A DNA stretch of 62,141 bases from Omnitrophica bacterium GWA2_41_15. GTDB taxonomy: Bacteria > Omnitrophota > Gorgyraeia > Gygaellales > Profunditerraquicolaceae. Location of the stretch: positions 1-62,141 of the forward strand of contig CAKKQZ010000060.1 in assembly GCA_919902445.1 (NCBI GenBank), read 5' to 3'. The notes beneath the pieces are model-generated. The model searched no databases, was not told the origin of the DNA, and saw only the letters and a list, made by a program, of their open reading frames with translations. Positions 31,829 to 59,608 of this stretch are shown here, in pieces. Positions within the stretch are counted from its first letter, which is position 1. Every line of letters begins with the position of its first letter. A program made the position numbers and the translations under genes.

Positions 31829-31838
31829 AGGATAAATT

Positions 31839-32876: not shown

Positions 32877-32877
32877 A

Positions 32878-33444: not shown

Positions 33445-33447
33445 TCC

Positions 33448-34077: not shown

Positions 34078-34080
34078 ATA

Positions 34081-34674: not shown

Positions 34675-34720
34675 CTAATATTTGATACGAGAACTGAGAA
34701 TCTAGCATCAAGGATATAGA

Positions 34721-38942: not shown

Positions 38943-40121
38943 ATGATTTCCTGGACAAAATTATTATCCTCCCCGAATGATTTAAAGAGGGGTTTTGAGA
39001 ATAACGGCCAGGATATAAAACCGGTAATAGTCTGGAATATAACTTCGTCCTGCAACCTCTCATGCTGTCATTGTTACCTTGAGTCATCAAAGATTCCTGC
39101 AGCCGAGATTCTCGATACGCAAAAATGCAAGAAAATCATCCTTGATTTAGCGGGATTTGGCGTTCCTGCGCTTCTTTTTTCCGGAGGAGAGCCGCTTTTA
39201 CGCAAAGACATATTTGAACTGGCAGAATTTTCCCGCCGATACGGTATAAGGCCGGTGCTTTCCAGCAACGGAACTTTAATTACCGAATCTAAGGCAAGGA
39301 AGATAAAAACTTCAGGCATAGAATATGCCGGTATAAGTATTGACGGTAAACCGGATACTCATGATAAATTGCGCGGCGAGAAAGGTTCATTTAAGAAGGC
39401 CGCCCTTGGGATAAGGAATTGTAAAGATGCGGGGGTAAAAGTTGGCGTGCGCTTTACTTTAATGAAGGATAATTCAAAAGATTTAGATTTTATTTTTAAT
39501 TTTGCGAGAAAAGAAAAGGTCAATCGCCTCTGCATTTACCATTTGGTTTATTCCGGGAGAGGAAGGCGGGAGAAAGAACTTTCCTTGGAAGAGAAAAGGG
39601 ACTGCCTTGAATTAATCTGGAATTACTCGGATACTTTCCATAGAGAGGATGAGCAAACCGAGATTCTTACAGTGGATAACCACTGCGACGGGGTATGGAT
39701 TTACCATAAAATGCTAAAATTCGATGAAGAGAGGGCAAACAAAATATTGAATTCTCTTTTGAAAAGCGGGGGAAACCAATCAGGGGTTTGTATCGGCTGC
39801 ATTGATTACCGGGGAGATGTTTATATAGATCAGTTTACGCGCGGGCATTCTTTAGGTAATGTAACCAAGAGGAAATTCGGTGAAATATGGGAGGATGAAA
39901 GCAATCTTTTGCTTTACGGATTAAGGCACCGCAAGGATTTTATCAAAGGAAGGTGCAAAGGATGCAGTTTTTTTTCTATCTGTAACGGCAATATGCGCGC
40001 CAGGGCGCAAGCAGTATACGGAGATTTCTGGGAAGAAGACCCCGGCTGTTACTTAAGCAACGAGGAGATAAATGTTGACGGATATCCGGCTGATATTCTG
40101 GGAAACTACAAGGGCTTGTAA
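38943..40121 (+). CDS. radical SAM/SPASM protein, AhbC/AhbD/NirJ family
   Basis: CNLSCCHCY radical SAM cluster, GGEPLL, and a C-terminal Cys-rich SPASM-like region CKGCSFFSICNGNMRA. Confidence 0.7.
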   Translation: MISWTKLLSSPNDLKRGFENNGQDIKPVIVWNITSSCNLSCCHCYLESSKIPAAEILDTQKCKKIILDLAGFGVPALLFSGGEPLLRKDIFELAEFSRRYGIRPVLSSNGTLITESKARKIKTSGIEYAGISIDGKPDTHDKLRGEKGSFKKAALGIRNCKDAGVKVGVRFTLMKDNSKDLDFIFNFARKEKVNRLCIYHLVYSGRGRREKELSLEEKRDCLELIWNYSDTFHREDEQTEILTVDNHCDGVWIYHKMLKFDEERANKILNSLLKSGGNQSGVCIGCIDYRGDVYIDQFTRGHSLGNVTKRKFGEIWEDESNLLLYGLRHRKDFIKGRCKGCSFFSICNGNMRARAQAVYGDFWEEDPGCYLSNEEINVDGYPADILGNYKGL

Positions 40122-41112
40122 CCTCGGATGCCCTCATTGTAGGGCTAGCGCAACCACTGAACCTTCACCCGAAGATTTAACCACGGATGAAGTAAAGAAA
40201 TTTATGGAACAGGCGGCTACATTTAGCAGGCCGATTTTAGTATTTTCCGGAGGAGAGCCGATATTGCGTAATGATCTGTATGAACTGCTTAGTTACGCAA
40301 ACAAGTTGGGATTAAAGCCGGCGCTGGCAACCAACGCCACTTTGATTTCCGAAGAAATTGCCTATAAATTAAAAGATAATGGCCTTAGCCTTGCTTCTGT
40401 TTCGATTTATGGCGCAAATGCAGAATCTCACGATTCATTTTGCGGGTTAAACGGCGCCTTTGAGAAGACATTAAAAGGAATAAATAATCTAAAAAAGGCA
40501 AAAGTCAATGTGCAGATAAATACTACTATAAGCAAAAAAAATTTAAAAGAATTGGAGGTAATAGGAGATTTTGCTTTAAAAATCGGCGCAGTAGCGTACC
40601 ATACCTTCTTTTTAGTTCCCACAGGCAGAGGAAGATATATCGAGGATGATGAAATATCCTCTCAAGAATATGAGAAGGCATTCAATCGCTTATATGATTA
40701 TCAGAAAGTTTTTCCTCTACGCATAAAAGCAACTTGCGCTCCCCATTATTACCGGATTTTACATATGAAAGAAGCAAAAACTAACGAAAGGTCAGACAAT
40801 GAGAAAAGTCGAGGCAAAGGATGCCTTGCCGGTCAGGGTGTTTGCTTTATCTCTCATAAGGGTGAGGTATTTGGTTGTGGATATTTACCTATTATAGCCG
40901 GTAACATTAGAAAACAAGATTTTAGGGATATTTGGTTTAAAAGTGAACTTTTTATAACCTTAAGAGATAATTCAAGATTACAGGGTAAATGCGGAGTTTG
41001 TGAATTTAAGGATGTCTGTGGTGGTTGTAGGGCGCGTGCCTATGCAGCCACAGGAAATTATTTAGAGGAGGATACAAAATGCGCCTATCAGCCCTTGACA
41101 AAAAGATTTTAA
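40072..41112 (+). CDS. radical SAM/SPASM protein, AhbC/AhbD/NirJ family (second copy)
   Basis: CNLGCPHC, GGEPIL, and C-terminal CGVCEFKDVCGGCRARA. Confidence 0.7.
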   Translation: MLTDIRLIFWETTRACNLGCPHCRASATTEPSPEDLTTDEVKKFMEQAATFSRPILVFSGGEPILRNDLYELLSYANKLGLKPALATNATLISEEIAYKLKDNGLSLASVSIYGANAESHDSFCGLNGAFEKTLKGINNLKKAKVNVQINTTISKKNLKELEVIGDFALKIGAVAYHTFFLVPTGRGRYIEDDEISSQEYEKAFNRLYDYQKVFPLRIKATCAPHYYRILHMKEAKTNERSDNEKSRGKGCLAGQGVCFISHKGEVFGCGYLPIIAGNIRKQDFRDIWFKSELFITLRDNSRLQGKCGVCEFKDVCGGCRARAYAATGNYLEEDTKCAYQPLTKRF

Positions 41113-41528
41113 ATAAAATTCAAGAAGATATTCCGTTAGTTCCTGAGCCATTTAAGGCATTGGCTAAAGATACAGGCGTTACTGAAGAGGATTTATTTAA
41201 GAGAATAGAAGAATTAAAAAACAAAGGAATCATCAGAGGCCATGCTGTAGGCATAAATCATAAAATTTTAGGTTTTAAGAGTACGCTTTTGGGCTTAAGA
41301 GTGTTGCAAGATAAGGTTGAAAGCTTAGGTAAAGAACTTGCGGCATATCCGGAAATTACCCATTGTTTCCAGCGTAAAGGTGAATTTAATCTCTGGGCTG
41401 TATTCATTTATAAGGATGGGAGATTAAAAGAGTTCCTGGATAAACTTGGCCAAAAAATTGGCAAAGAAAATATCTTGAATCTCAAGACATTAAGAAAGTT
41501 TAAGCTAAAGACAAGATTGAAGATTTAA
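41079..41528 (+). CDS. AsnC/Lrp-fold siroheme decarboxylase subunit (AhbA/AhbB/NirDLGH family)
   Basis: LDKKILNKIQEDIPLVPEPFKALAKDTGVTEEDLFKRIEELKNKGIIRG is the typical N-terminus of this family. Confidence 0.7.
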   Translation: MRLSALDKKILNKIQEDIPLVPEPFKALAKDTGVTEEDLFKRIEELKNKGIIRGHAVGINHKILGFKSTLLGLRVLQDKVESLGKELAAYPEITHCFQRKGEFNLWAVFIYKDGRLKEFLDKLGQKIGKENILNLKTLRKFKLKTRLKI

Positions 41529-41541: not shown

Positions 41542-41570
41542 TTGACAAACAGGATTAAGTTATTTATCAT
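41542..41570 (+). promoter_or_regulatory. sigma70-type promoter (TTGACA-17 nt-TATCAT)
   Basis: The TTG taken as the ORF start in the track is the -35 hexamer. The -10 is at 41565-41570. Confidence 0.55.
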
Positions 41571-41622
41571 AGGTTTATTCAGTTGTTTATTCAGTAACAG
41601 GTGTGCCATGAGGGAGGTTAGG

Positions 41623-42963
41623 ATGGGAAGAAAAAATCTGGTATTGTTAGGTATAAGTTTTTTTATGAGTTTATTTTTTATTAATTCTGCTTTTGCTATA
41701 CCTACCTTTGCCCGTAAGTATCGCACCAGTTGTAATACCTGCCATATAGCCATACCCAAACTAACTGCTTTTGGTGAATCTTATCGTTTGAATGGTTATC
41801 AGATTCCCGAAGGAGATGCAGCCTATGTAAAAGAAGAGCCGGTAAGTTTAGGTGCGCCTGCCTGGAAAAGGGTCTGGCCCGAGGCAGTTTGGCCGGGTAT
41901 GATTCCAGGGCCGGTGCCACTTTCCGTAAGAATCATTTCTGATTTTAAAGTTAATCAGGCAAGTGAAGCCGCAAGTACAGACTTTAATTTTCCCCATGAA
42001 ATAGAGTTGATGATGGCTGGCCTTTTAGATGAAAATCTGCCATTTTTTGCCGAAATTGAATTTGAAAAAGAGACTAGTTCAAGTTCAGTAGAAACTGATG
42101 TTGAGGCCTGGCTTGGTTTCTATAATCTATTTAGTAATGCATTACCGGAAAGGGCTCTTAATCTGAAAGTGGGAACGCTGGGGATTAATCCTTTACCTAT
42201 GGCTAATGACCACCTAAGAATCGGAAAGAACCACTATTTATATAATGACTGGAGATTAAGTAGCGCTTCTTCTGGAGCCAATGGTTTTCGTTTGAGAGAT
42301 CATCGAGGAGGTTTAGAACTGAATGGAATTTTGGCTGACCGCTTCTGGTACGGTGGCGGTGTAGTTAATGGAGTAAATTCTACGGATAAAGACGGTTATA
42401 TTATTACAAGATATAAATTCGGCGGGACACCTTTTAGCAAGTCAGCTCCTGGCGGAGGAACTGAAGAGGCCATAAAAGGGAAGGCAAGTGGTTTCTGGGT
42501 GGATAATGCCTTGGAGTTAGCCAGCTTTGGCTATTTTGGTTCCACGGAGATTGGTGCAGCAGCTACTGCTAACCAGGAAGACGATAAATTCTGGCGCGCG
42601 GGATTTGCTTTGCGCAATACCTACCAAAATTTTGATCTTAATGCCGGCTATATCTGGGGCAACAATGATGATCCTTATGGTAGTAGTAGCGCTCAGAACA
42701 TAAATTCACAAAGTTGGTTTGTGGAGACAAACTATGTATTTAAACCCTGGCTTATCGGAGAATTAAGATACGAAGCACTTGACGTAGATATGCCCACAGA
42801 TTTCACAGTTACCAATTTAGATAGGGCAAGGTGGGTTCCTGGTTTAATCTTTCAGATCAGGCCCAATATTAAGCTGGTGGCAGAGGCTTTAATCTACAGT
42901 AAGTATAAAGTAGCCAGTGATAGACAGAATAACTTTGTAGCGCGTTTGGATGCCAACTTTTAG
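41623..42963 (+). CDS. fused monoheme cytochrome c / outer-membrane beta-barrel, Cyc2-like candidate
   Basis: ATG 41623 after GGGAGG. Signal peptide ending SAFA, then PTFARKYRTSCNTCH (single CXXCH). About 400 aa rich in Gly and aromatic residues, ending in ...FVARLDANF (OMP-type C-terminal Phe). Confidence 0.6.
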   Translation: MGRKNLVLLGISFFMSLFFINSAFAIPTFARKYRTSCNTCHIAIPKLTAFGESYRLNGYQIPEGDAAYVKEEPVSLGAPAWKRVWPEAVWPGMIPGPVPLSVRIISDFKVNQASEAASTDFNFPHEIELMMAGLLDENLPFFAEIEFEKETSSSSVETDVEAWLGFYNLFSNALPERALNLKVGTLGINPLPMANDHLRIGKNHYLYNDWRLSSASSGANGFRLRDHRGGLELNGILADRFWYGGGVVNGVNSTDKDGYIITRYKFGGTPFSKSAPGGGTEEAIKGKASGFWVDNALELASFGYFGSTEIGAAATANQEDDKFWRAGFALRNTYQNFDLNAGYIWGNNDDPYGSSSAQNINSQSWFVETNYVFKPWLIGELRYEALDVDMPTDFTVTNLDRARWVPGLIFQIRPNIKLVAEALIYSKYKVASDRQNNFVARLDANF

Positions 42964-43058: not shown

Positions 43059-43640
43059 ATGGGAAGAGTCATTTCTATTTTTTTGTTTTTGGTTATTTTC
43101 TGTTCAGAACCCTCTTTTGCAGGAGTAATTAAAGGCAAAGTTTCAACAGCGAAGTTAAAGGCACCCAAAGACATTGTAGTATATATAGACAAAATAGAAG
43201 GAAAAGAGCTTTCTTCATCTGGAGAGCCTGCAAAGATGGACCAGATTAAGCTGGTGTTTATCCCTTATGTTCTTCCTATAATCAAAGGCACAACTGTTGA
43301 GTTTCATAATAGTGATGATGTAAAGCATAATGTCTTTGCTGTAGGTACAGAAAATTTTGATTTAGGTACCTGGACCAAGGGGATCACCAAGTCATATACC
43401 TTTAATAAATTAGGAGATACAGCCATTCTTTGTAATGTGCATCCTGAAATGGAGGCATATGTTTTTGTGCTCCAGAATCCCTATTTTGCTATTACTGATG
43501 AAAATGGACAATACCAGATAAAAGATGTTCCCAGTGGTAGCTATAAATTAAAGGCCTGGCATAATCGGTTAAAGCCGGTTACAAAAGATGTGGATGTAGC
43601 TGCATCAGGAGAACTAAGTGTAGATTTTGAGCTCAAATAG
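43059..43640 (+). CDS. secreted type-1-like cupredoxin fused to a carboxypeptidase-regulatory-like (CarboxypepD_reg) domain
   Basis: Signal peptide. Candidate Cu ligands FHNSDDVKHNV ... CNVHPEM. Then ITDENGQYQIKDVPSGSYKLKAWH. Confidence 0.7.
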   Translation: MGRVISIFLFLVIFCSEPSFAGVIKGKVSTAKLKAPKDIVVYIDKIEGKELSSSGEPAKMDQIKLVFIPYVLPIIKGTTVEFHNSDDVKHNVFAVGTENFDLGTWTKGITKSYTFNKLGDTAILCNVHPEMEAYVFVLQNPYFAITDENGQYQIKDVPSGSYKLKAWHNRLKPVTKDVDVAASGELSVDFELK

Positions 43641-44150
43641 ATGAAAATAAAAAACAATATTCTTATCTTAGGTTTTTTATTTTGTGGTCTGGGTATTTTA
43701 GCAGGCCTTTTGCTGGCGAAGGCTAAGGTTTCTCTTCCTGTGCATAGACAGATTAGTATTGTATCTTATAAATATGGATATGAGCCAGCTGTGATACGGG
43801 TAAATCAAGGAGATACGATTACTTTGAAGTTAAAATCTAAAGACGTAACCCATGGTTTTTATCTTGAGGGGTATGATTTTGATGCCAAGGTAAGAGGGGA
43901 GATGCCGAGTTTCTGGATCAGGCATCCTTCGAAAAGCGAAGAATACGATAAAAACCCGATAGAAACCTATACCTTTGTGGCAAATAAGCCGGGTAAGTTT
44001 CGTTACCGTTGTTCTATAACTTGCGGCTCATTTCACCCATTTATGCAGGGAGAAATGATTGTTGTGCCCAATTACCTCTTCCCTGTTTCTACCGGGTTAG
44101 CTTTAGGTATGGTCTTTACCTGCCTGATTTATTTTAAGCGAAAAAGATGA
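43641..44150 (+). CDS. membrane-anchored cupredoxin with CuA-type motif (type A)
   Basis: N- and C-terminal TM helices. DVTHGF plus CSITCGSFHPFM (C-x3-C-x3-H-x2-M). Paralogue of 57711-58187. Confidence 0.65.
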   Translation: MKIKNNILILGFLFCGLGILAGLLLAKAKVSLPVHRQISIVSYKYGYEPAVIRVNQGDTITLKLKSKDVTHGFYLEGYDFDAKVRGEMPSFWIRHPSKSEEYDKNPIETYTFVANKPGKFRYRCSITCGSFHPFMQGEMIVVPNYLFPVSTGLALGMVFTCLIYFKRKR

Positions 44151-46978
44151 TTGATTTATTTGAAAAATTGCCCTTTTTATTAAAAGTCTGTAAAAGCCGA
44201 TGGCTGCAGTTTATCATTGTCTTTCCTACCTTATTAATATTTATTGTTTTTCTTTATGCCGGCATTTTTGGAACTCCGGTAGGAAACAAAAATATTATCA
44301 TTGTGTTTGTTTGGATTTTCTGGTGGATTTTGCTTATCGGTTTTATGGTGCCATTTGCATCACGTATATGGTGCTTGGTATGTCCTTTCCCGATTATTGG
44401 CGAATGGCTTCAACGTATGGCATTTATTAAGGTAAGGACTAGCGATACCCTATCAGGCTTAAAAAGTAAATACTTCGGAAAAAATAAACCTTGGCCAAAG
44501 AAACACAGGCACATCTGGTTTCAAAGCCTGGGTTTTCTATCCTTGGCGGTATTCAGCCCATTTTTAGTTACGCGCCCCTTTGTAAGTTTCATTGTCTTGG
44601 GTGGGTTATTTGCGGCGGCAACAGCATTAAGTTTAATCTATAAACAAAGGGTATTTTGTATGTATCTTTGCCCGGTAAGTGGATTCTTAGGGCTTTATTC
44701 TATGACCTCAAAACTTGGGCTTCGGGCAAAAGATGTAGAGTTGTGCAACCGCATTAAGAAAGATGAAGAGTTTAATTTTGATTATGGCATTGCAGCTTGT
44801 AGATTAAGCTGTCCCACAGGCATGGATGCCTCAAGTTATATTGCACTTATAGGCAGAGGCAGATACAAAGAAGCCCTGGAGGTAATAAAAGAAGCATCCC
44901 CCTTTGCTGGCGTTTTAGGCAGGGTGTGCACTCACCCCTGCGAGACTGAATGTGTTCGCAAAGAACTGGATGAGCCCATTTCTATTTGCCGCCTGAAGAG
45001 GTTTGTGGGAGATTATATAGGCTACAATGAGATGCAGCCAGCACAGGAGTTTAAACCGCGTTATAAAGAAAAAATAGCTATTATAGGCGCTGGACCTGCA
45101 GGTTTATCCTGCGCCTATCATTTAGTCAGGAATGGATACCAGACTACTGTTTATGAGGCACTTCCTGTTGCCGGCGGGATGATAAGAGTGGGCATTCCTT
45201 CATATAGACTGCCCAAAGACATTGTTGATAGAGAGATAGAGTATATAAAAAATAGTGGCGCGGATATTCGGACCAATATAGAGATTGGTCGGGATTTAGA
45301 TTTTGAGGAATTAAGAAAGGAGAACCAAGCAATATTTATTGCTGTTGGCGCTTCAGAGTCAAGGAGGCTGAAGATAGAAGGAGAGGATTTAAAAGGTGTT
45401 TACAATGCAATAGATATTTTACAGAAAGTAAGTTTGGGAGAGAAATTAGATTTGGGTAAAAGGGTTATAGTTATTGGCGGAGGTGATACAGCAATAGATA
45501 CAGCCCGGGCAATGCTCAGGCTGGGTTGCAATGAAGTCAGGATAGCATATCGGCGCACTAGAGACGAAATGCCTGCTATACCTGAAGAGGTAGTTGCTGC
45601 AGAAAAGGAAGGTATAAAAATAGATTTTCTTACTGCGCCGGTAAAGATTGAAGGAAGCAATGGCAGGGCAACATCCCTTCTCTGCACAAAGATGAGGTTA
45701 GGTCAACCTGATGAATCTGGAAGGCCACAACCTGTGCAAATCAAGGGTTCTGAGTATCTGATTTCAACTGACAGTATAATTGTAGCTACCGGACAATATT
45801 CAGATATAAACTTTTTACCCAAGGAATTAAGCATAAGTACTGCTGGCACCATAATCGTGGATACTCAAGACATGGTTACTAATATCCCTGGTATTTTTGC
45901 TGGTGGAGATGTGGTGAGCGGGCCTGATATTCTCGTTAAGGCCTTAGGTATGGGTAGGAGGGCTTCTATCGCCATTGACAGGTACCTGCGAGGTGAAGAA
46001 TTAAGCCGTATTTCTTTTTATCCTTCAGAGAAGAGGGTTGAGGAGGTACCCATAGGAATAATTGACAGAGAAGATAGGGTTAAATCACGCTTTCGACCAA
46101 TTGAGGAACGCATTAAAGATTTTAAAGAAGTAGAAGAGGTGTTTACAGAAAATATGGCAGTTCGGGAAGCCAAGAGATGCTTGAGTTGCGGAATATGCGG
46201 GGCGTGTTACCGTGGTTCAGATAAAGGATGGGCCTGCGCTTGGTTTGAAAAGATGGGGGGAATGGATAGAAATAATTATTGTGGCTTATGTATGGAGTGC
46301 GTAAAAAGCTGCCCCTATGATAATATCGGGCTCTATTGGCGGCCATTTGCTTGGGATAAAGATATCAAGGGTTATGATGAATCCTGGAAGTCCTTTATTA
46401 TGCTAGTCTTAGCGATTATTTATTCTATCAATTTGTTAAGCCCTTGGGGCAAGCTTAAGAATTTTCTTAACTTTACTGAAACAGGCACAGTAGGTCATTT
46501 TATCTTACTTAGTGTGAATATGCTTTTATGGTGCCTGGCACTATTTCCATCTATTCATTATCTCTTCTGCAAATTTTCCCAGTTGTTATCTAGGTCTAAA
46601 GAGGTGGAGACAAAAGAATTATTCTTAAAGTATTCCTATGCTTATGTTCCTTTGGGTCTTATGGCCTGGGTGTGTTTTAGCGTGCCGCTACTATTGATTA
46701 ATGGCAGTTATATCCTGGCAGTGATTTCCGACCCCTTTGGTTGGGGCTGGAACCTTTTTGGCACAGCGCATCTTCATTGGAGCCCTATATTACCGCACTG
46801 GGTTCCTTACATACAGGCACTTTTTATATTAGCAGGACTTTTCTACTCTGTAGTATCTGTATTTAAAATAGCCAAGAGGATATTTTCTCAAAAAGAAGAG
46901 GCTTTAAAAAGTATTATTCCCATAGTTGCGCTGCTTTTAATAATAACTATAATCTTTTTTAGGTTATATTTGGGTTAG
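44147..46978 (+). CDS. NapH-like polytopic Fe-S membrane protein with an inserted GltD-like NAD(P)H flavoprotein module
   Basis: WCLVCPFP and FCMYLCPVSG in the TM region. Insert carries CPTGMD...CTHPCETEC, IAIIGAGPAGL and VIGGGDTAID. It rejoins at CGLCMECVKSCPYDN, and the C-terminal TM part ISDPFGWGWNLFGTAH is shared with ORF 58180. Confidence 0.75.
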   Translation: MIDLFEKLPFLLKVCKSRWLQFIIVFPTLLIFIVFLYAGIFGTPVGNKNIIIVFVWIFWWILLIGFMVPFASRIWCLVCPFPIIGEWLQRMAFIKVRTSDTLSGLKSKYFGKNKPWPKKHRHIWFQSLGFLSLAVFSPFLVTRPFVSFIVLGGLFAAATALSLIYKQRVFCMYLCPVSGFLGLYSMTSKLGLRAKDVELCNRIKKDEEFNFDYGIAACRLSCPTGMDASSYIALIGRGRYKEALEVIKEASPFAGVLGRVCTHPCETECVRKELDEPISICRLKRFVGDYIGYNEMQPAQEFKPRYKEKIAIIGAGPAGLSCAYHLVRNGYQTTVYEALPVAGGMIRVGIPSYRLPKDIVDREIEYIKNSGADIRTNIEIGRDLDFEELRKENQAIFIAVGASESRRLKIEGEDLKGVYNAIDILQKVSLGEKLDLGKRVIVIGGGDTAIDTARAMLRLGCNEVRIAYRRTRDEMPAIPEEVVAAEKEGIKIDFLTAPVKIEGSNGRATSLLCTKMRLGQPDESGRPQPVQIKGSEYLISTDSIIVATGQYSDINFLPKELSISTAGTIIVDTQDMVTNIPGIFAGGDVVSGPDILVKALGMGRRASIAIDRYLRGEELSRISFYPSEKRVEEVPIGIIDREDRVKSRFRPIEERIKDFKEVEEVFTENMAVREAKRCLSCGICGACYRGSDKGWACAWFEKMGGMDRNNYCGLCMECVKSCPYDNIGLYWRPFAWDKDIKGYDESWKSFIMLVLAIIYSINLLSPWGKLKNFLNFTETGTVGHFILLSVNMLLWCLALFPSIHYLFCKFSQLLSRSKEVETKELFLKYSYAYVPLGLMAWVCFSVPLLLINGSYILAVISDPFGWGWNLFGTAHLHWSPILPHWVPYIQALFILAGLFYSVVSVFKIAKRIFSQKEEALKSIIPIVALLLIITIIFFRLYLG

Positions 46979-46983: not shown

Positions 46984-47457
46984 ATGAAAAAAGAAAATAT
47001 AATAGAGATTTTTCTTTTAGTTTTAGTGGTGGCGTCGGTCATTTTACTCCCCCTTGTTATTATAAAAATTGATAAATACTATCTGGCCAGAAAATTTCCT
47101 AAAAATGCACAGGTGATAACCCTTTACGGCATAGCCAAGGGAGGCCTCTGGACCCAGGAACCGGTTAACAGCTTTAATTACTGGTGGAAGAGGTTTAAAC
47201 GTGCAGAAGAAATTCCCATCCGTGATGACGGCACTCCTATTTTTTTCCGCATAACCAGCACAGACGTGGTACACAGTTTTGCTATTCCTCTTTATCGTAT
47301 AGGTCCTTATGATATAAAGCCAGGAGAATTTACAGAGGTTGAACTTAAAACAGATAAAGAATTAGTAGATACGGGCTTTCTCTGTTGGCAATATTGCGAT
47401 AAAGACCACGAACATATGAAAGGCAGATTAGTTATCTTACCTAAAAATGAGGAGTGA
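46984..47457 (+). CDS. N-terminally anchored cupredoxin with CuA-type motif (type B)
   Basis: TM helix. DVVHSF plus CWQYCDKDHEHM (C-x3-C-x3-H-x2-M). Paralogue of 59609-59998. Confidence 0.6.
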   Translation: MKKENIIEIFLLVLVVASVILLPLVIIKIDKYYLARKFPKNAQVITLYGIAKGGLWTQEPVNSFNYWWKRFKRAEEIPIRDDGTPIFFRITSTDVVHSFAIPLYRIGPYDIKPGEFTEVELKTDKELVDTGFLCWQYCDKDHEHMKGRLVILPKNEE

Positions 47458-48110
47458 AAATTTTTAAAAAATTTATTTTTGTTAGCTTTTTAGCAATATT
47501 TTTTTCACTTATTATAGCCAGCCTCTTTCCTGAAGAAGCTAGCCATAAGTATTTCTATCAGGCACCTTGGTTTAAGTTCCTCTGGTTTATTGTTTCTATT
47601 GGTATAATTATTGTTTTTGTTAATTCTGTCCAAAGAAGAGATTTTGGATTTTCTATAATTTACCTGGGCCTTCTTCTTGTTTTACTGGCGGGCCTTTTGG
47701 CATCCTTATTCAAAGAAGAAGGGTTTATGGAGATGAAAAAAGGCCAGACTCAAGATGACTTCTGGATTAATGATGAGTCTTCAAAATCCTTAGGCTTTTC
47801 CCTATCTTTAAAGGATTTTTCAGTGGAATTTTATCCTAAAGAAGTAAAAGGGATGCGTTTTATTAAAGCTTATAAGACTTCCGTAGGAATTAGCAGAAAT
47901 GGGAAATTGCTTAAAGAGGCTACTATCGAAGTAAACAAGCCTTTAACCTTTGAGGGGTTTTGGTTTTATCAGTATGGTTATGAACCTAAGCTTCCTGAGC
48001 AAACTGTCCTGCAAGTAGTTAAAGATCCCGGACTTCCTTTAGCCTATAGTGGATATTTAATTTTGATGTTAGGTCTAGTGTTCTCATTCAGACGCCTATG
48101 GAAAATTTAG
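47454..48110 (+). CDS. ccsB: short ResB/CcsB-like cytochrome c biogenesis protein
   Basis: TM helices flank LSLKDFSVEFYP...EVNKPLTFEGFWFYQYGY...VVKDPGLP, a ResB-like periplasmic pattern. Much shorter than typical ResB. Confidence 0.6.
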   Translation: MKIFKKFIFVSFLAIFFSLIIASLFPEEASHKYFYQAPWFKFLWFIVSIGIIIVFVNSVQRRDFGFSIIYLGLLLVLLAGLLASLFKEEGFMEMKKGQTQDDFWINDESSKSLGFSLSLKDFSVEFYPKEVKGMRFIKAYKTSVGISRNGKLLKEATIEVNKPLTFEGFWFYQYGYEPKLPEQTVLQVVKDPGLPLAYSGYLILMLGLVFSFRRLWKI

Positions 48111-48862
48111 TTTTAATTTTATATTTACTTTCTTTACTTTTCTATTTTTTATCTTATTTTTTTAAACATAAGTTTTTTTCTCGCTTAGGCTTAATATTTT
48201 TAAGCACAGGACTCCTGTGTAGCTTCTATTTAGCAAGCACACATTTTTATACTACTCAACGCTTACCCTTAACTAACACATCTGAGACTCTTTTTTCACT
48301 GGTTACTCTTGTGGTTCTAGTGTATCTGGCATTAGAATGGAAGTTAGGATTGCCCAGAATATTGGGCTTGAGTGTTAGCTTGATTTCTCTTTCAGGTCTA
48401 TATTTAGCCTTTTACTTTTTCAAAAAGCCTTTGTTGCCTTTACTGCCTGCCCTGCAGAGCAGATGGCTGGTTTTTCATGTTTCAAGTTGTATTGTTGCTT
48501 ATGGTTTTTTTACCCTTGCATTTATCTGCGCAATAATTTACCTTGCCAGGAGCAATCCCGCGCTCATTATTTTCTCTATTATGCACCGTTCTATCTCTGT
48601 GGGGTTTTTATTTCTAACGCTGGGAATAATCTTGGGTTCAATCTGGGGTAAGTCTGCGTGGGGGCACTGGTGGAATTGGGATCCCAAGGAGACCTGGGCG
48701 TTAATTACCTGGTTTATTTATGCTGGCTATATGCATGCCAAATTATTTGGTAATTGGCCTAAAAGGAAACTTGCCCAAATAGCCGTCTTAGGATTTTTGT
48801 CTTGTCTTTTTACTTACCTAGGTGTAAATTATATTTTAAGAGGTTTACATAGCTATGCGTAA
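48098..48862 (+). CDS. ccsA: cytochrome c assembly protein CcsA (system II)
   Basis: Trp-rich WAWGHWWNWDPKETWALITW motif and polytopic profile. Confidence 0.85.
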   Translation: MENLVLILYLLSLLFYFLSYFFKHKFFSRLGLIFLSTGLLCSFYLASTHFYTTQRLPLTNTSETLFSLVTLVVLVYLALEWKLGLPRILGLSVSLISLSGLYLAFYFFKKPLLPLLPALQSRWLVFHVSSCIVAYGFFTLAFICAIIYLARSNPALIIFSIMHRSISVGFLFLTLGIILGSIWGKSAWGHWWNWDPKETWALITWFIYAGYMHAKLFGNWPKRKLAQIAVLGFLSCLFTYLGVNYILRGLHSYA

Positions 48863-49657: not shown

Positions 49658-50752
49658 ATGGACTTTTTGATTTTAGGGTTAAATCATAAAACTGCGCCTG
49701 TAGAAATTAGAGAAAGGGTTTCTTTTTCTACATCCGGTATTTCCTGCGCCTTAAGACTCTTACAAAAATACCCTTTTGTTAGTGAGTCTCTTATACTTTC
49801 TACCTGTAACCGAGTTGAGCTCTATGCAGTTGTGGAAGATAAAGTAGAAGGTTTAAAGAGCCTTAAAGAATTTCTATACCGATATCATGAACTCAAAGAT
49901 TCCTTAGACCCGTATCTTTATTTTTATGAAAATGAGCTTGCGCTTAGACATACCTTTAGAGTTACATCATCATTAGACTCTATGGTCGTAGGAGAAAATC
50001 AGATACTCCATCAGGTAAGGCAGGCGTATCTGAGGGCGCAGGAAGCAGGTTCAACGGGTAGAGTTTTAACTTCCGTCTTTCAGGAGGCCTTGCGGGTGGC
50101 AAAGATGGCGCGCACTCAAACTGGAATCAATAAAGGAGCCGTTTCCATAGGTAGTGTAGCTGTAGAATTGGCAAAGGAGATATTAAAGGATTTAAAAGAT
50201 AAAAAAATATTAATTATTGGTGCAGGAAAAGTTAGTGAGCTAACAGTAAAAAACTTAGCAGAGCGAGGAGTAAATTTAATTCTGGTGGCAAACCGTACCT
50301 TTGAAAATGCTCTAAAGCTTGCCCAAATCTTTCAAGGTGAGGCTATAAAGTTTGATAAGTTAAATGAGGTTTTAAAAGAGGTTGATATTGTAATCAGTTC
50401 TACCAATTCTCCCCATTATATTTTAAGAAAAAAAGATATACTTTCAGTTATTAGTGAAAGAGGCCATAAGCCATTATTTCTTATCGACTTAAGCGTTCCC
50501 AGAAATATAGAACACGCTGTCTCAGAGATCAAAGATACGCATCTTTATAATATTGATGACCTTCAGAAGATAAGCCAGTTAAATCTAAAGGAAAGATTAA
50601 AAGAAGCCCATAAAGCAGAGAAAATAGTTAAAGAAGAATCAGATAAGTTTTATGCTAAGATAACAGATATCTTTTTATATGGGCATATGATTGTTGATGT
50701 GAAAGAGGCAATGATGGGATGTTTAAACATCCCCTTTGTGGGTAGTTCATAA
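49658..50752 (+). CDS. hemA: glutamyl-tRNA reductase
   Basis: LGLNHKTAPVEIRE, LSTCNRVELY, GENQIL, IGAGK. C-terminal dimerisation region is shorter than usual. Confidence 0.9.
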   Translation: MDFLILGLNHKTAPVEIRERVSFSTSGISCALRLLQKYPFVSESLILSTCNRVELYAVVEDKVEGLKSLKEFLYRYHELKDSLDPYLYFYENELALRHTFRVTSSLDSMVVGENQILHQVRQAYLRAQEAGSTGRVLTSVFQEALRVAKMARTQTGINKGAVSIGSVAVELAKEILKDLKDKKILIIGAGKVSELTVKNLAERGVNLILVANRTFENALKLAQIFQGEAIKFDKLNEVLKEVDIVISSTNSPHYILRKKDILSVISERGHKPLFLIDLSVPRNIEHAVSEIKDTHLYNIDDLQKISQLNLKERLKEAHKAEKIVKEESDKFYAKITDIFLYGHMIVDVKEAMMGCLNIPFVGSS

Positions 50753-51272: not shown

Positions 51273-51677
51273 ATGCAATTTATCCTACGCAATTCTGACT
51301 ACGCATTAAGAAGCCTCAGCTTTTTGGCAGGCCTTCCTAGGGGTAAGAAAATCAAAGTAAGCACAATAGCGGAAAAACAGGATCTGCCCCCTGCTTTTTT
51401 AAGGAAGATCCTTCTTAAGCTATCCAAGGCGAGGATTGTTGAGTCCAGATCCGGGCCCTGCGGAGGTTTCTCTTTGTCAAGGAAGCCGTCTCAGATTAGC
51501 TTAAAAGAGGTTTTAGAGGCGGTTCAGGGCCGCGTTTCCCTGAATGACTGCCTGTATGATTCTAATTTCTGCAGCCGCTGGAGAAGGTGCAGTGTCAGGC
51601 CGGGGTTATCCGTAATACAGGATAAGTTAATAGGCCTGCTCGATGAATGTAATCTCGGGGATTTTCTTAAGTTATGA
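51273..51677 (+). CDS. Rrf2-family (IscR/NsrR-like) Fe-S transcriptional regulator
   Basis: N-terminal wHTH (DYALRSLSFLA) and a three-Cys cluster CLYDSNFCSRWRRC. The stop codon overlaps the start of the molybdoenzyme gene. Confidence 0.85.
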   Translation: MQFILRNSDYALRSLSFLAGLPRGKKIKVSTIAEKQDLPPAFLRKILLKLSKARIVESRSGPCGGFSLSRKPSQISLKEVLEAVQGRVSLNDCLYDSNFCSRWRRCSVRPGLSVIQDKLIGLLDECNLGDFLKL

Positions 51678-54600
51678 AAAAAATAACACGTAAGCAGTTT
51701 TTAAAGATTTCCCTTGCTTCTTTTGCCGGGTTAATGATGAGTAAGCCGCTCCTTGCAAGCCTCAAGGTAATCCCTGAAGTAGATGATCCATTGCAATATT
51801 ATCCTGATAGGGACTGGGAGAAGATTTACCGCGACCAGTATAGGTATGACTCAACCTTTCACTTCCTATGCGCGCCCAATGATACGCATAACTGTTTATT
51901 AAAGGCTTATGTAAAGAACGATACTGTAATCAAAATAGGCCCGAGTTACGGATACGGAAAGGCAAAGGATATTTACGGTAATCAGGCAAGCCACAGGTGG
52001 GATCCCCGCCTTTGCCAAAAAGGATTGGCTTTAATCCGCAGGATCTACGGCCCAAGAAGAGTGAAGTATCCGATGGTAAGGGAGGGTTTTAAGAAATGGC
52101 TGGATGCAGGATTCCCGAGGGATGAACTGGGGAGGATTCCTCAGGAGTACATTAACCGCGGGAAAGAATCATTTGTAAAGGTTACCTTTGAAGAGGCGAG
52201 CGAGATCGTAGCAAAGGCAATGGTTAATATCGCAACTACTTACACCGGGGATACCGGCAAAGAATTACTGACTAAACAGGGATATGATGAAGCGATGATT
52301 GAGGCAATGAAAGGTGCCGGGACGCAGGTATTAAAGGTACGCGGCGGAATGCCGCTTTTAGGCGCAACCAGGATTTTTGGATTCCAACGTTTTGCTAATT
52401 CCATTGCCTTGCTTGATGATAAAATCAGGAATGTTGGAAAAGAGAACGCCATAGGCGCGCGCAGCTGGGATAGTTATTCTTGGCATACGGATTTGCCTCC
52501 GGGCCACACCATGGTCTGCGGCCAGCAGACAATAGATTTTGATTTAGCCACGGTAGAAAATTCAAAGATAGTGATCTGCTGGGGGATGAACTGGATTTCA
52601 ACCAAGATGCCCGACGCGCATTGGCTCACCGAGGCAAGGGTTAAAGGGACAAAGGTAATAACAATAGCTTGCGAATACCAGTCTACCTCCAATAAGGCAG
52701 ACGCAGCGATAGTCATCCGTCCGGGAAGCGACACTGCTTTTGCGCTGGGGATGGCCAATATTATAATCAGCGAGAAACTTTATGACGTTGATTTTATAAA
52801 AGCCCAGACAGACCTCCCGTTTTTAGTGCGTATGGATACCCTTAAACTTTTAAAGCCGCAGGATGTTATACGTGATTATAAAAATAAGGAATTGCAAAAT
52901 ACGCAGGTTCTTAAAAAAGGAGAAGAAGCCCTAGCGCCTATAAAACAGGACCGCCAGGTAATCGCGGAAAATTTGCGGGAAGAATGGGGAGATTTTCTCG
53001 TATGGAGCCTTGATAAAAATAAAATAGAGGTGATTAGCAGGGATGATGCCGCGGTTGCGGGTAATTTTGCCCTGGAAGGAGAATTTACCCTTGAAACAGT
53101 TGACGGCAAGAAAATTACTGCGCGCCCGGTATTTGATTTAGTAAAAGAGAATGCCTCTTATTTTACTCCGGAAGTAACAAGCGATATCTGCCATGTGAGC
53201 AAAGAGGCGGTAGTTGAGCTTGCGCGTCAAATAGCCGCAGATAAATCCCAAACCTTAATCGCTGTCGGCATGGGGCCAAATCACTTCTTTAATAATGACC
53301 TTAAAGACCGCGCGATATTCCTCGTATGCGCCCTGACAAAAAACATCGGATTCCATAGCGGTAATATAGGCAGTTTCGCCGGAAATTACCGCGGCGCGTA
53401 TTTTAACGGACTGCCTTTTTATATTACAGAAGACCCGTTCAATATAGAATTAGAGCCGGAGAAATTACCGCATAAAAAATCTTACTACAAGGCAGAGTCA
53501 GCGCATTATTATAATTACGGCGATAGGCCTTTACGGGTAGGCAACAAGCTTTTTACAGGTAAGACCCACATACCCACCCCTACTAAATTTATGTGGTTTG
53601 GAAACGGAAATTCCATTCTCGGCAATTTGAAGTGGCACCATGATTTTGTGATGAACACCCTCCCTAAGATAGAATGTGTAGTGGTTAACGAATGGTGGTG
53701 GACTGCATCCTGCGAATACGCTGATGTTGTCTTTGCGGTTGATTCCTGGGCGGAGTTTAAATTCCCGGATATGACAGCCGCCGTGACAAACCCGTTTTTT
53801 CAAATATTTCCCCGCACGCCTTTAAAAAGGCTGCACGACACAAGAAGCGATATTGAGACATTTGCGCAGGTAAGCAAGGCGCTGGCAGCAATTACAGGCG
53901 ACAGCCGTTTTATTGACTACTGGAAATTCGTGCATGAAGGCAAAGTTGAAACTTATTTACAAAGGATAATCGATAATTCGAGCACGCTTAAAGGTTATAA
54001 TATAGAAGAAGTAGAGGCGAATGCAAAAGAAGGGATACCCGCTTTGATTATGACGCGCACCTATCCGAAAATAATGGGTTGGGAGCAGTCAAATGAAAAC
54101 AAGCCGCATTATACAAAATCGGGAAGGATGGAGTTTTACCGGGATGAAAACGAATTTTTAGAGTACGGTGAAAATATTCCGGTGCACCGCGAGCCTGTGG
54201 ATGCGACTTTTTATGAGCCGAATGTTATTGTCTGCGGAGCAAAAGATTTAATCAGGCCCAAGGGCCCGCAGGATTACGGATTATCCCTTGAGGATCAATC
54301 CTGCGAAGTGAGGCAGGTGCGCAATGTGGTGGTTGCCCCGGCAAATCTTACAAAAACCAAACATCCAAGAATAAAAGACGGCTTAGCATTTATTTATATC
54401 ACCCCTAAGTACCGCCACGGAGCGCATACGACTCCGGTTGATACCGATATTATCTCCATGTGGTTCGGCCCGTTCGGCGACCCGTATCGCAGGGACAACA
54501 GGATGCCCTGGGTCGGCGAAGGTTATGTGGATATAAACCCTGAAGACGCCAAGGAATCAGGTATCGAAGACGGGGATTACGTATATATTGACGCTGATCC

Positions 54601-57633: not shown

Positions 57634-57690
57634 GGACACCCTTTCTGCTAAAGCTAAGCCGCTCTTTCTGCCAATCTTAAGGGTGTCCCC
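57632..57690. repeat. 59-nt TIR element (copy B)
   Basis: AGGGACACCCTT ... AAGGGTGTCCC terminal inverted repeats (11 bp). The interior matches copy A at 30151-30209 in reverse orientation. Confidence 0.7.
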
Positions 57691-57710
57691 AATAAGGTAA
57701 GGAATAAGAA

Positions 57711-58187
57711 ATGAAAAAACTAATTATTGTCCTGCTCTCGGTTTTATGTTTTACAGCTACTTCTTACGCAGCTGAAAGGTTCTTTGAAATCAAGGCGAAA
57801 AGATTTGTCTATACTCCCAGCATTATCAAGGTAAATAAGGGTGATTTAGTCAGGATCCGCCTTATTAGCGAAGATGTGACCCACGGTTTTTTCCTCGACG
57901 GTTACGGCCTAAATACGTCTACGCATCCGGGACAGGAAGGATTCCTGCAATTTGTTGCGGATAAGCCGGGAAGATTTACTTTTAGGTGCTCGGTTACCTG
58001 CGGAGAATTTCATCCTTATATGGTAGGATATTTTGTAGTAGAAAAAAACCTGCGCCTTTACTTATTTGTGCTTTTGACCGTTCTTTTAGGAGTGGGAAGC
58101 CTTTTAATAATTCTTAAGAATAAACCGCAACAGGCTCATGATAATAATCCGCCGCAGGAGCCAACTATGAATACCAGTAATGGATAA
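57711..58187 (+). CDS. cupredoxin with CuA-type motif (type A), signal peptide plus C-terminal TM anchor
   Basis: DVTHGF plus CSVTCGEFHPYM. Paralogue of 43641-44150. Confidence 0.65.
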   Translation: MKKLIIVLLSVLCFTATSYAAERFFEIKAKRFVYTPSIIKVNKGDLVRIRLISEDVTHGFFLDGYGLNTSTHPGQEGFLQFVADKPGRFTFRCSVTCGEFHPYMVGYFVVEKNLRLYLFVLLTVLLGVGSLLIILKNKPQQAHDNNPPQEPTMNTSNG

Positions 58188-59604
58188 TAAAGATAAATTA
58201 TTCGGCTTGATAGATCTAAACTGGAGGTTTGAACTCACAAAGTTTAAGCAGGTCGGGAAGCTTTTTAAATCCCGCTGGTTTCCGCTCCTTCCTATTATCG
58301 TAAATCTTTTTATTTTTGTCATAATTTTACTCGCCGGTTTTATCGGAGGCTATTCCTCCGGGAGTTACAATTTCGGGATCATGATTGTCTGGATACTCTG
58401 GTGGGTAATGCTGATGTTTATTCTGGTTCCCGGTTTTTCGCGGTCATGGTGCCTTATGTGCCCGTTTCCCATATTCTCCGACTGGTTTCAAAGGAAAAGG
58501 CTCTTCGGCGTCAGGCAGGGTAAGCTGGAAGGGCTGGGGCTTAAATGGCCGAAACAACTTAAAAATATGTGGGTGATGAATATCGGTTTTTTAGTCACGA
58601 CATTCTTCTCCGGGCTTTTTACCGTAAAACCTTTCGCTACTTTTGTGCTTTTGGGAGGAATAATTCTGCTTGCTTTCTTAATCGGTTTAATCTTTGAAAA
58701 GCGCTCTTTTTGTTTGTACGTCTGCCCGGTTTCAGGATTCCAGGGGCTTTATGCACAGTTTGCGACTGCTGAAATAAGAAGGATGAACCCTGAGCTTTGC
58801 AAGAACCATAAAGTTAAAACCTGTTTTGTGGGTAATGAATGCGGATACGGCTGCCCTTGGATGCTCACCCCCTTTGATTTTAAGAAAAATACTTACTGCG
58901 GTATGTGCCTTGAATGTTTTAAGACCTGCCCTTATGATAATATGGGATTTTTCCTAAGGCCGCCCGGAGTAGATTTGCTTTCCGATACTCCGAGAGAGCC
59001 GCGCCGGCTTGATGAGGCGTGGAAGGCCTTTATTATGCTTGGGATTGCCGCTGTGTTTTTCTTAACTATGCAGGGGCCATGGGGGGTATTAAAGGATATG
59101 GTCCGCCAGGCGACATTTAAGGGCTGGCTTATTTTTATAACCCTGCATTCATTCTTCTGCCTTGTCGGTATACCGGGGATTTTCTTTATCTTCTCATGCC
59201 TCTCCAAATTATTCAGCGGAAACAAAGAGGTTTCCTTAAGGCAAATTTTTATAAATTTCGCTTACACTCTTGTGCCTATTGGGTTAGGCGTTTGGATTGC
59301 ATTTAGCGTCGGGATAATACTTCCTAACGGCAGCTACCTCATTCATGTGATCTCTGACCCCTTTGCCTGGGGTTGGAATCTTTTTGGCACAGCGCATTTC
59401 CCTTGGACTCCGGTATTCACCGGAAGCTTGGGGTATATACAAGGCTTTGTCCTGGTAATTTTTTACTTATTCGCAACAGCCTTAGGGTTTCGTCTTTCAA
59501 AGCAGACTTACCTCGACTTAAGCCAGGCAAAGCGGGGTTGGATTCCGATTTTAATATTCTTAACTTTAGTTACGATATTATTTTTGTGGTTATATCTGGG
59601 GTGA
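58180..59604 (+). CDS. NapH-like polytopic Fe-S membrane protein (no flavoprotein insert)
   Basis: WCLMCPFP, FCLYVCPVSG, CFVGNECGYGCPW, CGMCLECFKTCPYDN, and C-terminal ISDPFAWGWNLFGTAH. Collinear with the N- and C-terminal parts of ORF 44147. Confidence 0.7.
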   Translation: MDNKDKLFGLIDLNWRFELTKFKQVGKLFKSRWFPLLPIIVNLFIFVIILLAGFIGGYSSGSYNFGIMIVWILWWVMLMFILVPGFSRSWCLMCPFPIFSDWFQRKRLFGVRQGKLEGLGLKWPKQLKNMWVMNIGFLVTTFFSGLFTVKPFATFVLLGGIILLAFLIGLIFEKRSFCLYVCPVSGFQGLYAQFATAEIRRMNPELCKNHKVKTCFVGNECGYGCPWMLTPFDFKKNTYCGMCLECFKTCPYDNMGFFLRPPGVDLLSDTPREPRRLDEAWKAFIMLGIAAVFFLTMQGPWGVLKDMVRQATFKGWLIFITLHSFFCLVGIPGIFFIFSCLSKLFSGNKEVSLRQIFINFAYTLVPIGLGVWIAFSVGIILPNGSYLIHVISDPFAWGWNLFGTAHFPWTPVFTGSLGYIQGFVLVIFYLFATALGFRLSKQTYLDLSQAKRGWIPILIFLTLVTILFLWLYLG

Positions 59605-59608
59605 GAAT

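Follow-up and report, generated by a model that had tools for sequence, protein, structure and literature searches.

What does a pyridine-nucleotide-dependent flavoprotein do in the middle of a membrane iron-sulfur (Fe-S) protein whose gene lies among genes for periplasmic copper proteins? The question is raised by contig CAKKQZ010000060.1 (assembly GCA_919902445.1) of Omnitrophica bacterium GWA2_41_15, whose 62,141 nucleotides are referred to here as the window. One open reading frame (ORF) of 943 amino acids (aa) carries both kinds of protein in a single chain. The reading that we prefer, with a probability of roughly 0.55, is that the flavoprotein part would be an NADP(H) port wired into the cytoplasmic domain of the membrane host, predicted to hold two [4Fe-4S] clusters, and would link NADPH to a chain of CuA, blue copper and Cyc2-type proteins. 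The parts are of known kinds, and the permuted cassette had already been found inserted in soluble hosts. What appears to be new is its location in a polytopic membrane protein, its recurrence and its Cyc2/CuA context; no description of the module was found in the literature on NapH-like proteins or polyferredoxins with cupredoxins, Cyc2 or nitrite oxidoreductase.

A flavoprotein cassette inside a membrane protein

The fused ORF was compared by BLASTP with an unfused paralogue of 474 aa encoded in the same window, and two blocks were obtained. Residues 13-223 match paralogue residues 27-226 (39% identity, E value 1e-42) and residues 686-943 match residues 214-474 (38% identity, 5e-62), leaving about 478 residues (206-683, nucleotides (nt) 44762-46195) with no counterpart in the paralogue. 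A first-pass annotation of the window had described the same collinear N- and C-terminal regions and had placed the insert at 44759-46190 (residues 205-682), in agreement with these limits. The layout is as follows, TM standing for transmembrane.

44147..46978, + strand: whole fused ORF, 943 aa, membrane Fe-S host with inserted NADPH/FAD cassette (Pfam, BLASTP)
44147..44761, + strand: host N-terminal half, residues 1-205, four TM helices (BLASTP to paralogue, TM scan, AF2 helices)
44372-44386, + strand: CLVCP, residues 76-80, predicted cytoplasmic end of TM2
44657-44674, + strand: CMYLCP, residues 171-176, predicted cytoplasmic end of TM4
44744-44746, + strand: C200, predicted first ligand of host Fe-S motif 1
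44762..46195, + strand: inserted GltD-type NADPH/FAD/2x[4Fe-4S] cassette, residues 206-683, circularly permuted by its motif order
44792..45019, + strand: Fer4_20 positions 30-108, residues 216-291, with C218, C222-P, C261, C265, C269 and K284 (Pfam)
44996-44998, + strand: K284, equivalent of StnC K170 (alignment)
45071..45955, + strand: FAD and NADPH Rossmann domains, residues 309-603, FAGGDVVSGP included (Pfam, motifs)
45086-45103, + strand: GAGPAG
45476-45493, + strand: GGGDTA
45548-45556, + strand: YRR
45956..46108, + strand: linker bridging the original ends (C- and N-terminus) of the GltD fold, residues 604-654, model confidence mostly low
46109..46192, + strand: Fer4_20 positions 1-28, residues 655-682, displaced N-terminal leader F.EVE..F.E..A..EAKRC678LSC681G
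46196..46324, + strand: rest of the host ferredoxin-like domain, residues 684-726, with C684, C687 and C697 (tail of motif 1)
46373..46975, + strand: host C-terminal five-helix membrane domain, residues 743-943 (BLASTP, model)
46727-46750, + strand: SDPFGWGW, conserved loop, predicted periplasmic
58180..59604, + strand: unfused paralogue, 474 aa, at the end of a NarG-like/NarH-like/NarJ-like/EB_dh operon

An architecture this unusual could, by itself, suggest that assembly or gene calling had joined two genes. However, the reading frame is uninterrupted, the host resumes collinearly past the insert, and a database search for the same fusion, as proposed at the first pass, recovered it in 29 full-length homologues (38-80% identity) and in partial ones, about 32 in all, from independent assemblies. 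Mis-assembly was therefore dismissed, and the probability of an artefact of either kind is negligible. The fused gene is real and conserved. An identical NCBI protein (P0001) is annotated as 'FAD-dependent oxidoreductase [Candidatus Omnitrophota bacterium]'; some of the fused homologues are full-length proteins of 921-1260 aa from different phyla, and their source labels include Scalindua, Latescibacter and a Spirochaetes metagenome-assembled genome (MAG).

The first-pass annotation had allowed that the insert might lack the residues that bind FAD and NAD(P)H; these and the Fe-S motifs are intact. The motifs IAIIGAGPAGL, VIGGGDTAID and GGD(V)V that it had quoted, the last within FAGGDVVSGP, were all found, together with AYRRTRDEMPA. 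As first described, a polytopic membrane Fe-S protein is covalently joined to an intact NAD(P)H/FAD/Fe-S flavoprotein, and the cofactor motifs of the latter are conserved across the family. Pfam places Fer4_20 at residues 216-291 (75.9 bits) and Pyr_redox_2 at residues 309-603 (116.3 bits, cut-off 26.1), each well over its cut-off. The FAD fold shows the GxGxxG pattern followed by an acidic residue (KIAIIGAGPAGL...VYEA), with G314, G316, P317 and G319 invariant in alignment A1, and the second Rossmann fold, VIGGGDTAIDTA, is of the GGGxTAxD type. The segment AYRRTRDEMPA aligns with IYRRTIDEMPA of StnC (Sporomusa ovata StnABC, 8OH5 chain C), and we take its YRR motif to bind the 2′-phosphate of NADPH, as in the GltD/NfnB/DPD-type family. 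NADPH was seen bound in the StnC structure (PMC10482914). The predicted ligands of two [4Fe-4S] clusters are C678, C681, C218, C222-P, C261, C265 and C269 with K284, which are invariant in the 29 homologues; 16 Cys in total are invariant across that set.

Over its full length the insert shares 39-44% identity with the GltD-like modules of NfnABC-NfnA (9BOV, 9N5U) and StnC (8OH5), to which Foldseek gives E values of 1e-38 to 1e-41, and in sequence and fold it is less close to NfnB, GltD or DPD. The aligned span, C218 to C681-G682, corresponds to StnC 103-567 and to 9BOV chain A 103-568, and the cassette begins and ends where the GltD module of StnC does (aa 102-565). In StnC this segment is a GltD domain within a NuoG-like protein; it binds NADPH and FAD and feeds single electrons to an Fe-S chain from a non-bifurcating flavin, and its proximal cluster is ligated by K170, whose place is taken by Glu in NfnB (PMC10482914). 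K284 of the fused protein aligns with K170 and, like the residues around it, does not vary among the fused homologues (A1).

The Fer4_20 domain is matched in two pieces. Positions 30-108 of its hidden Markov model (HMM) match residues 216-291 (67.3 bits), and positions 1-28 match residues 655-682, behind the flavin domains (25.6 bits), where the leader holds the first two Cys of the GltD Fe-S motif. Artificial re-joining of residues 648-682 to 216-300 produced a single contiguous match to positions 1-108 (100.1 bits). As the halves stand in swapped order, the new ends therefore fall after the second Cys of the first Fe-S motif and before its third. Judged by this motif order, the insert is a circularly permuted GltD fold, a cassette of the StnC/NfnABC type and not a canonical GltD. 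By analogy with cluster ligation in DPD, the split motif presumably belongs to the distal, electron-exit cluster, and with the ends between these two Cys the distal [4Fe-4S] cluster of the cassette should sit at the junction with the host clusters. In the nearest soluble relatives, HdrA-like and NuoG-like, RCxxC was always found after the NADPH domain only; these relatives therefore have the same permuted cassette.

The description of the insert as a complete glutamate-synthase-small-subunit-type module was thus borne out for its FAD, NADPH and Fe-S motifs but not for its order, and every NCBIfam GltD/GltA model stays below its cut-off on the fused protein (TIGR01317, 250.4 against 447.7; TIGR01318, 294.6 against 482.95; TIGR01316, 383.7 against 471.75). 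No glutamate synthase large-subunit gene is among the annotated ORFs of the window. StnC and NfnA of NfnABC share with the fused protein the permuted order, with an EAxRCLxCG leader after the flavin domain, the FAD and NADPH motifs, the Lys at the K170 position and the placement of the module within a host Fe-S protein. Their hosts, however, are soluble NuoG/FdhF-like proteins of bifurcating transhydrogenases, whereas the cassette here sits in a polytopic membrane protein; the fused protein has Ala at the position of StnC C114; and no NuoE/F-like genes lie beside the fused ORF, which therefore has no HydBC-like partner of the kind found with StnC/NfnABC. About 13 kb upstream there is an RnfC-like gene that includes a Complex1_51K domain. 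NfnB/NfnL, GltD and the N-terminal half of DPD have the same fold with FAD, NADPH and two [4Fe-4S] clusters (target-normalised TM-score 0.76-0.80), but in canonical order, with the RCxxC leader N-terminal; NfnB also has Glu at the proximal cluster and a bifurcating flavin, where the fused protein has Lys.

The host and its side of the membrane

According to the first-pass annotation the insert replaced the first Cys cluster of the host loop. Instead, that motif is split and retained. In 36 close unfused proteins (alignment A2) the ferredoxin-like loop has the ligands C207-x2-H210-x4-C215-x9-C225-P and C240-x2-C243-x2-C246-x3-C250-P, and C221 of the window paralogue is not conserved. Paralogue residues C207, C215 and C225 correspond to C200, before the insert, and to C687 and C697, after it; the second motif of the fused protein, within residues 684-726, is C712-x2-C715-x2-C718-x3-C722-P. 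Conservation was assessed in 150 members of the host family. Of the eight ferredoxin-ligand positions, seven have Cys in at least 97% of them and position 210 has Cys in 52%, with His there in the unfused A2 set; the four Cys of the CX2-3CP motifs are 96-99% conserved.

The TM scan and the AF2 model gave four N-terminal helices, the ferredoxin loop and then five helices. Lys and Arg together number 4 in the N-terminus, 10 in the TM2-3 loop and 8 in the segment after TM4, against 1, 1 and 0 in the remaining loops. By the positive-inside rule the Fe-S loop is cytoplasmic, a side that the NADPH-binding insert independently requires. The conserved Cys of the host all face the cytoplasm. In the 150 members His and Met are conserved at no position, and Cys at none in the helices or periplasmic parts; on the periplasmic side conservation is highest for D-P-x-G-x-G-W, in the loop between TM7 and TM8. 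The host is modelled as a nine-helix inner-membrane 'polyferredoxin' with two CX2-3CP motifs, a 2x[4Fe-4S] loop and a five-helix domain. No solved relative of it was found in the PDB by Foldseek or sequence searches.

The host had been called NapH-like. NapH has two CX3CP motifs after TM helices and a cytoplasmic 2x[4Fe-4S] domain, and the resemblance proved distant by profile scores: the paralogue reached 21.0 bits with TIGR02163 (NapH/MauN), whose cut-off is 213.05, this model is absent from the 25 best of 61 NCBIfam matches for the fused protein, and the common part is the PF12801 motif domain only (27.2 bits in the paralogue, cut-off 22). Like the PF12801 proteins NapH/MauN, NosR/NosH and CcoG, the host has CX3CP-type motifs at cytoplasmic helix ends followed by a two-cluster ferredoxin domain, and likewise goes with periplasmic redox-protein partners; it differs from them in that one motif is CX2CP and in its extra five-helix C-terminal domain. 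NosR serves the CuA enzyme NosZ and has its own periplasmic FMN-binding domain N-terminal to the membrane part, whereas the flavin here would be a cytoplasmic FAD served by NADPH; Pfam found no FMN_bind in the fused protein or the paralogue.

This topology bears on the proposal, made at the first pass, that the protein would pass electrons directly from NAD(P)H to cupredoxins, along an unbroken Fe-S chain through the membrane and without a quinone intermediate. The fusion and the flanking cupredoxins are real, and the four CX2-3CP Cys might hold an additional cluster close to the membrane surface. However, all conserved Cys are cytoplasmic, and some 30 Å of membrane show no redox centre. Since His and Met are not conserved in the membrane or periplasmic regions either, there is no evident run of Fe-S centres that would reach the periplasm. 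In addition, polyprenyl synthase and UbiA-family genes lie just upstream in the window and fit the use of a quinone, without proving it. We therefore consider a quinone-free wire very improbable. A transmembrane haem b wire was ruled out, since no His is conserved among the 150 members.

The copper-protein cluster and the proposed electron path

The genes around the fused ORF overlap or are 0-5 nt apart, and in most of the string they overlap or are 0-13 nt apart.

41542..42963, + strand: candidate Cyc2-type fused cytochrome-porin, 473 aa, signal peptide, C-terminal F
43059..43640, + strand: protein of 193 aa with type-1 copper motif H..CNVHPEM and CarboxypepD_reg, conserved in the cluster
43641..44150, + strand: CuA-type cupredoxin, 169 aa, signal peptide and C-terminal TM anchor, motif CSITCGSFHPFM, upstream partner
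46984..47457, + strand: CuA-type cupredoxin, 157 aa, N-terminal TM anchor, motif CWQYCDKDHEHM, downstream partner
47454..48862, + strand: ResB-like (218 aa) and CcsA (254 aa) cytochrome c biogenesis genes, same in locus L009

The four cupredoxins that flank the two paralogues all have the CuA motif C-x3-C-x3-H-x2-M and an upstream His (CSITCGSFHPFM, CWQYCDKDHEHM, CSVTCGEFHPYM, CTVWCSTRHMQM), and all are membrane-anchored on the periplasmic side. The best PDB matches of the 158-aa cupredoxin are subunit II (COX2) of ba3 oxidase and the CuA domains of NosZ. The gene of the 169-aa cupredoxin overlaps the fused ORF by 4 nt, and its homologue is fused to the host in P0024, P0027 and P0226. The upstream CuA domain is covalently fused in many unfused hosts (615-633 aa) and occurs in some cassette-bearing proteins (P0027, P0021-P0025), while the 157-aa type is kept downstream of both fused and unfused hosts. 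The coupling to periplasmic copper proteins that had been proposed thus has a genetic basis in the flanking cupredoxin genes and fused cupredoxin domains, although this does not extend to its quinone-free form. The Cyc2 candidate has the motif AIPTFARKY-RTS-CNTCH-IAI-PKL and agrees with the published criteria, which are AxPxFAR[Q/K][T/Y] before a single CXXCH, PxL after it and a length of at least 365 aa (PMC8406198). A 16-strand porin barrel is suggested for this protein by the absence of Pfam matches, its C-terminal Phe and its 37% identity to a Scalindua homologue.

The order Cyc2/blue copper/CuA/host/CuA is kept in Scalindua, and L009 keeps it from the blue copper gene onward, with a Sco1-like gene before it at the contig end. 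Without the cassette, the same cluster was found in 23 (by motif) to 30 (by tblastn) of 80 genome loci from many phyla, among them L020, L027, L004 and the complete genome of the cultured sulfate reducer Desulfoluna limicola ASN36 (L090, NZ_AP024488.1, 6565-11254). These unfused hosts share 49-61% identity with the query host in the N-terminal half and 45-50% in the C-terminal half, against about 39-40% for the window paralogue, and the fused gene therefore derives from a Cyc2-associated subfamily. As in Cyc2 iron oxidation, where Cyc2 is followed by rusticyanin or cytochrome c, a Cyc2-motif protein is followed here by cupredoxins. Known Cyc2 pathways end in haem-copper oxidases or bc1, whereas here the partner would be a polyferredoxin, which in the window carries the NADPH module. 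In the Cyc2/blue copper/CuA/polyferredoxin/CuA cluster, Cyc2 pathways may have an end at the inner membrane that has so far gone undescribed. Together with its pair of CuA cupredoxins, the host family is a widespread neighbour of Cyc2-type proteins, and a candidate inner-membrane partner outside the classical iron oxidisers.

So many copper proteins could also point to a CcoG-like function, in which the protein would be an NADPH-dependent cupric reductase or maturation factor that reduces Cu(II) to Cu(I) for loading the copper proteins of the cluster. PF12801, the motif domain found in the host, is presumably also part of CcoG; Sco1-like genes occur in the Scalindua and L009 clusters, and five copper proteins and cytochrome c biogenesis genes are nearby. 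CcoG, likewise a membrane protein, has two [4Fe-4S] clusters and two Cu sites, and its physiological donor is unknown (PMC7558416); the cassette would fill the place of this donor. However, no CcoG/FixG-type model or FixG_C was among the Pfam and NCBIfam matches at the thresholds used, the strict one-to-one-to-one gene order and the frequent CuA-host fusion suggest a stable electron-transfer complex and not a chaperone with its client, and the unfused form is the terminal gene of NarG-like operons, as a structural subunit would be. A role in copper loading is thus improbable.

In the reading that we prefer, the NADP(H) port, NADPH would donate a hydride to FAD, and single electrons would pass through the two [4Fe-4S] clusters of the cassette, the one on the FAD side having Lys at the StnC K170 position, and then through the two [4Fe-4S] clusters of the host to its membrane part. 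The latter would trade electrons with the two membrane-anchored CuA cupredoxins, from which they would proceed through the type-1 copper protein to the Cyc2-type outer-membrane cytochrome-porin or to other acceptors. Because the host is without conserved haem or copper ligands, a quinone or another cofactor would be needed as the membrane-crossing link, of which a quinone, reduced on the cytoplasmic side and oxidised on the periplasmic side, would be the most economical. Oxidation of NADPH with electrons moving outward is the favoured direction because of the membrane potential and the redox potentials (textbook values of about -320 mV for NADPH and about +250 mV for CuA). The logic is similar to that of NADPH oxidase, ferric reductase and STEAP, which join cytoplasmic NADPH and FAD to an outward-directed membrane domain (PMC7558416). 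This is an analogy only; those reductases have transmembrane haems and an unrelated flavin domain, whereas the host has Fe-S clusters and no haem ligands.

Several points weigh against the NADP(H) port. No electron-carrying cofactor site is visible across the membrane in the 150 family members, and a flow from NADPH to the periplasm alone would not conserve energy. A Cyc2 homologue is normally read as an iron oxidase, which implies inward flow, the opposite direction. Furthermore, the StnC-type module is reversible in Stn (PMC10482914).

An alternative that starts from quinol would run the cassette in reverse. Menaquinol would be oxidised with bifurcation, one electron passing to the CuA and blue copper proteins and the other up the Fe-S chain to FAD and NADP+. 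The energetics are feasible (menaquinol at -74 mV with an acceptor at +250 mV, textbook values), and the reaction would supply NADPH to organisms with a Cyc2 chain. In six unfused loci (L025, L013, L023, L024, L029, L030) a GltD-like gene stands by itself, 1-2 kb downstream of the host. In L025 (11080-17862) it encodes a permuted GltD-like protein that ends in a ferredoxin domain, and directly after it come genes for a Rieske protein, a split cytochrome b and multihaem cytochromes c; together they make up an anammox-style Rieske/cytochrome b (R/b) complex with an NAD(P)-linked subunit. Kartal et al. 2013 are said to have described anammox R/b complexes with a GltD-like subunit. Bifurcation has been proposed for these complexes, as summarised in bioRxiv 10.1101/855817. 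However, no quinol site was identified in the host, and bifurcation would need an undefined quinone site in a protein without haems or a Rieske centre. The cassette, moreover, is most like that of StnC, whose flavin is non-bifurcating, and shares 39% identity with the R/b-associated GltD-like protein against about 50-56% with soluble HdrA-like cassettes. Quinol bifurcation is therefore unlikely. A more specific form, in which the protein would be the inner end of a haem-poor copper trans-envelope chain and would make NADPH by bifurcation through four [4Fe-4S] clusters, is more doubtful still; if true, it would be a bc1-independent and complex-I-independent 'uphill' route to NADPH, and repeated capture of the cassette would mark the lineages that adopted it.

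The fusion matters beyond this locus, since it bears on what the cytoplasmic clusters of NapH-, NosR- and CcoG-like proteins do and on what feeds them, the donor of CcoG being an example. A fusion to an NADPH/FAD module that was acquired several times argues that such clusters are a true point of electron entry or exit towards the cytoplasm, and it also fixes the topology of the loop. The permuted GltD cassette, besides its NuoG-like and HdrA-like soluble hosts, plugs into a membrane host.

Recurrence of the fusion and other loci

The fused form is rare, with about 7 cases among the 150 best host-family representatives at 50% identity and 1 among the 80 best host loci of species-level genomes. 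The neighbour-joining trees used are crude. In the tree of host-only columns the cassette-bearing proteins stand in at least five separate places, each beside unfused proteins, and fused and unfused sisters can be close in the host part (P0029/P0276, 77.7% identity; P0030/P0307, 73.7%). The cassettes are not monophyletic by sequence; that of the query, 53-56% identical to HdrA-like soluble ones, shares 38-47% with the cassettes of other membrane-fused clades. A second junction type, with the complete first motif before the cassette and RCxxC-G alone after it, was found in P0028, P0270, P0030, P0031 and P0368. These two junction types and the trees, crude as they are, favour several captures, or captures with recombination, over one event, and recurrent acquisition of the cassette by the host is the favoured explanation.

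An origin of the cassette from the neighbouring GltD-like gene associated with Rieske and cytochrome b genes is not supported by the identities already given (39% against 50-56%). Two candidates for a form without the host N-terminus were also discarded: P0089 is a soluble protein in an Hdr context, and P0036 is a truncated type II fusion. Short host repeats flank the cassette in P0029 (compared with P0276, TPDC...NPTL-KEC) and in P0030 (compared with P0307, IDQR...IDRN). They resemble target-site duplications but are too short to interpret, and this explanation was not retained.

Other features of the copper cluster were recorded. The ResB-like protein of 218 aa matches only the middle of its 486-position profile, and in L009 (4879-5847) the equivalent is fused with CcsA in a protein of 322 aa; the pair looks like a minimal System II cytochrome c synthase in a copper-protein cluster. 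No CcdA or ResA is among the annotated ORFs of the window. A HemA gene lies downstream of the ResB-like and CcsA genes. It stands at one flank of the copper cluster and two radical-SAM/SPASM genes with a NirD/L-like gene at the other (38943-41528 and 49658-50752), and L007 and L009 have the same set with HemC/HemD. These flanking haem genes look like a siroheme-dependent (Ahb) pathway rather than haem d1 synthesis.

In Latescibacter-type clusters (L001 2239-5538; L010 4013-6071) the fused gene is preceded by a beta-barrel-like protein that has no haem motif and ends in Phe, and there are separate small monohaem cytochromes c; barrel and cytochromes together may be a split counterpart of Cyc2. 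A thioredoxin-fold 'AhpC/TSA' domain forms the N-terminal 150 or so residues, ahead of the CuA domain, in P0021-P0025 and P0241 (for example L001 5585-6050). It has no Cys in the active-site region and occurs in fused and unfused (P0241) hosts. With the CcdA/TlpA neighbours of P0030, this domain in P0021-P0025 had hinted at a CcdA/TlpA-like periplasmic thiol reductant, a reading that was dropped, weakened by the missing CxxC and by the presence of the domain in unfused P0241.

The unfused paralogue belongs to another gene set of the window:

51674-57633: NarG-like/NarH-like/NarJ-like/EB_dh operon
57711-58187 and 59609-59998: CuA cupredoxins flanking the paralogue

This periplasmic-type operon, with a NarG-like subunit of 1140 aa and an EB_dh haem-b protein, closes with CuA/474-aa polyferredoxin/CuA and not with a known membrane anchor (51674-59998). 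The same ending was found in 'Ca. Hakubella', in an Undinarchaeales-labelled MAG and in others (L006, L007, L008), and the host of NarG-like operons is 62-94% identical across more than 100 clusters. The start of the NarG-like subunit (51674-51760) resembles a Tat signal but has R-K, not twin arginines. The Kuenenia nxr cluster was considered as a possible case with a NapH-like or cupredoxin gene and was set aside because kustd1709-1711 proved to be haem proteins.

Elsewhere in the window, positions 30329-35794 encode RnfC-, RnfD-, RnfG-, RnfE- and RnfA-like proteins and then, in place of RnfB, an NqrF-like protein (2Fe-2S/FAD/NAD). This apparent Rnf/Nqr hybrid operon is followed by genes of the UbiA family, for a polyprenyl synthase and for MoeA. 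Between a beta-oxidation gene set (7687-14945) and the respiratory island lies a block (19726-29279) with two AAA_14/DUF4143 ATPases, chemotaxis genes (CheY-like, CheW, MCP), PilM/PilO-like genes and an IS200-type transposase.

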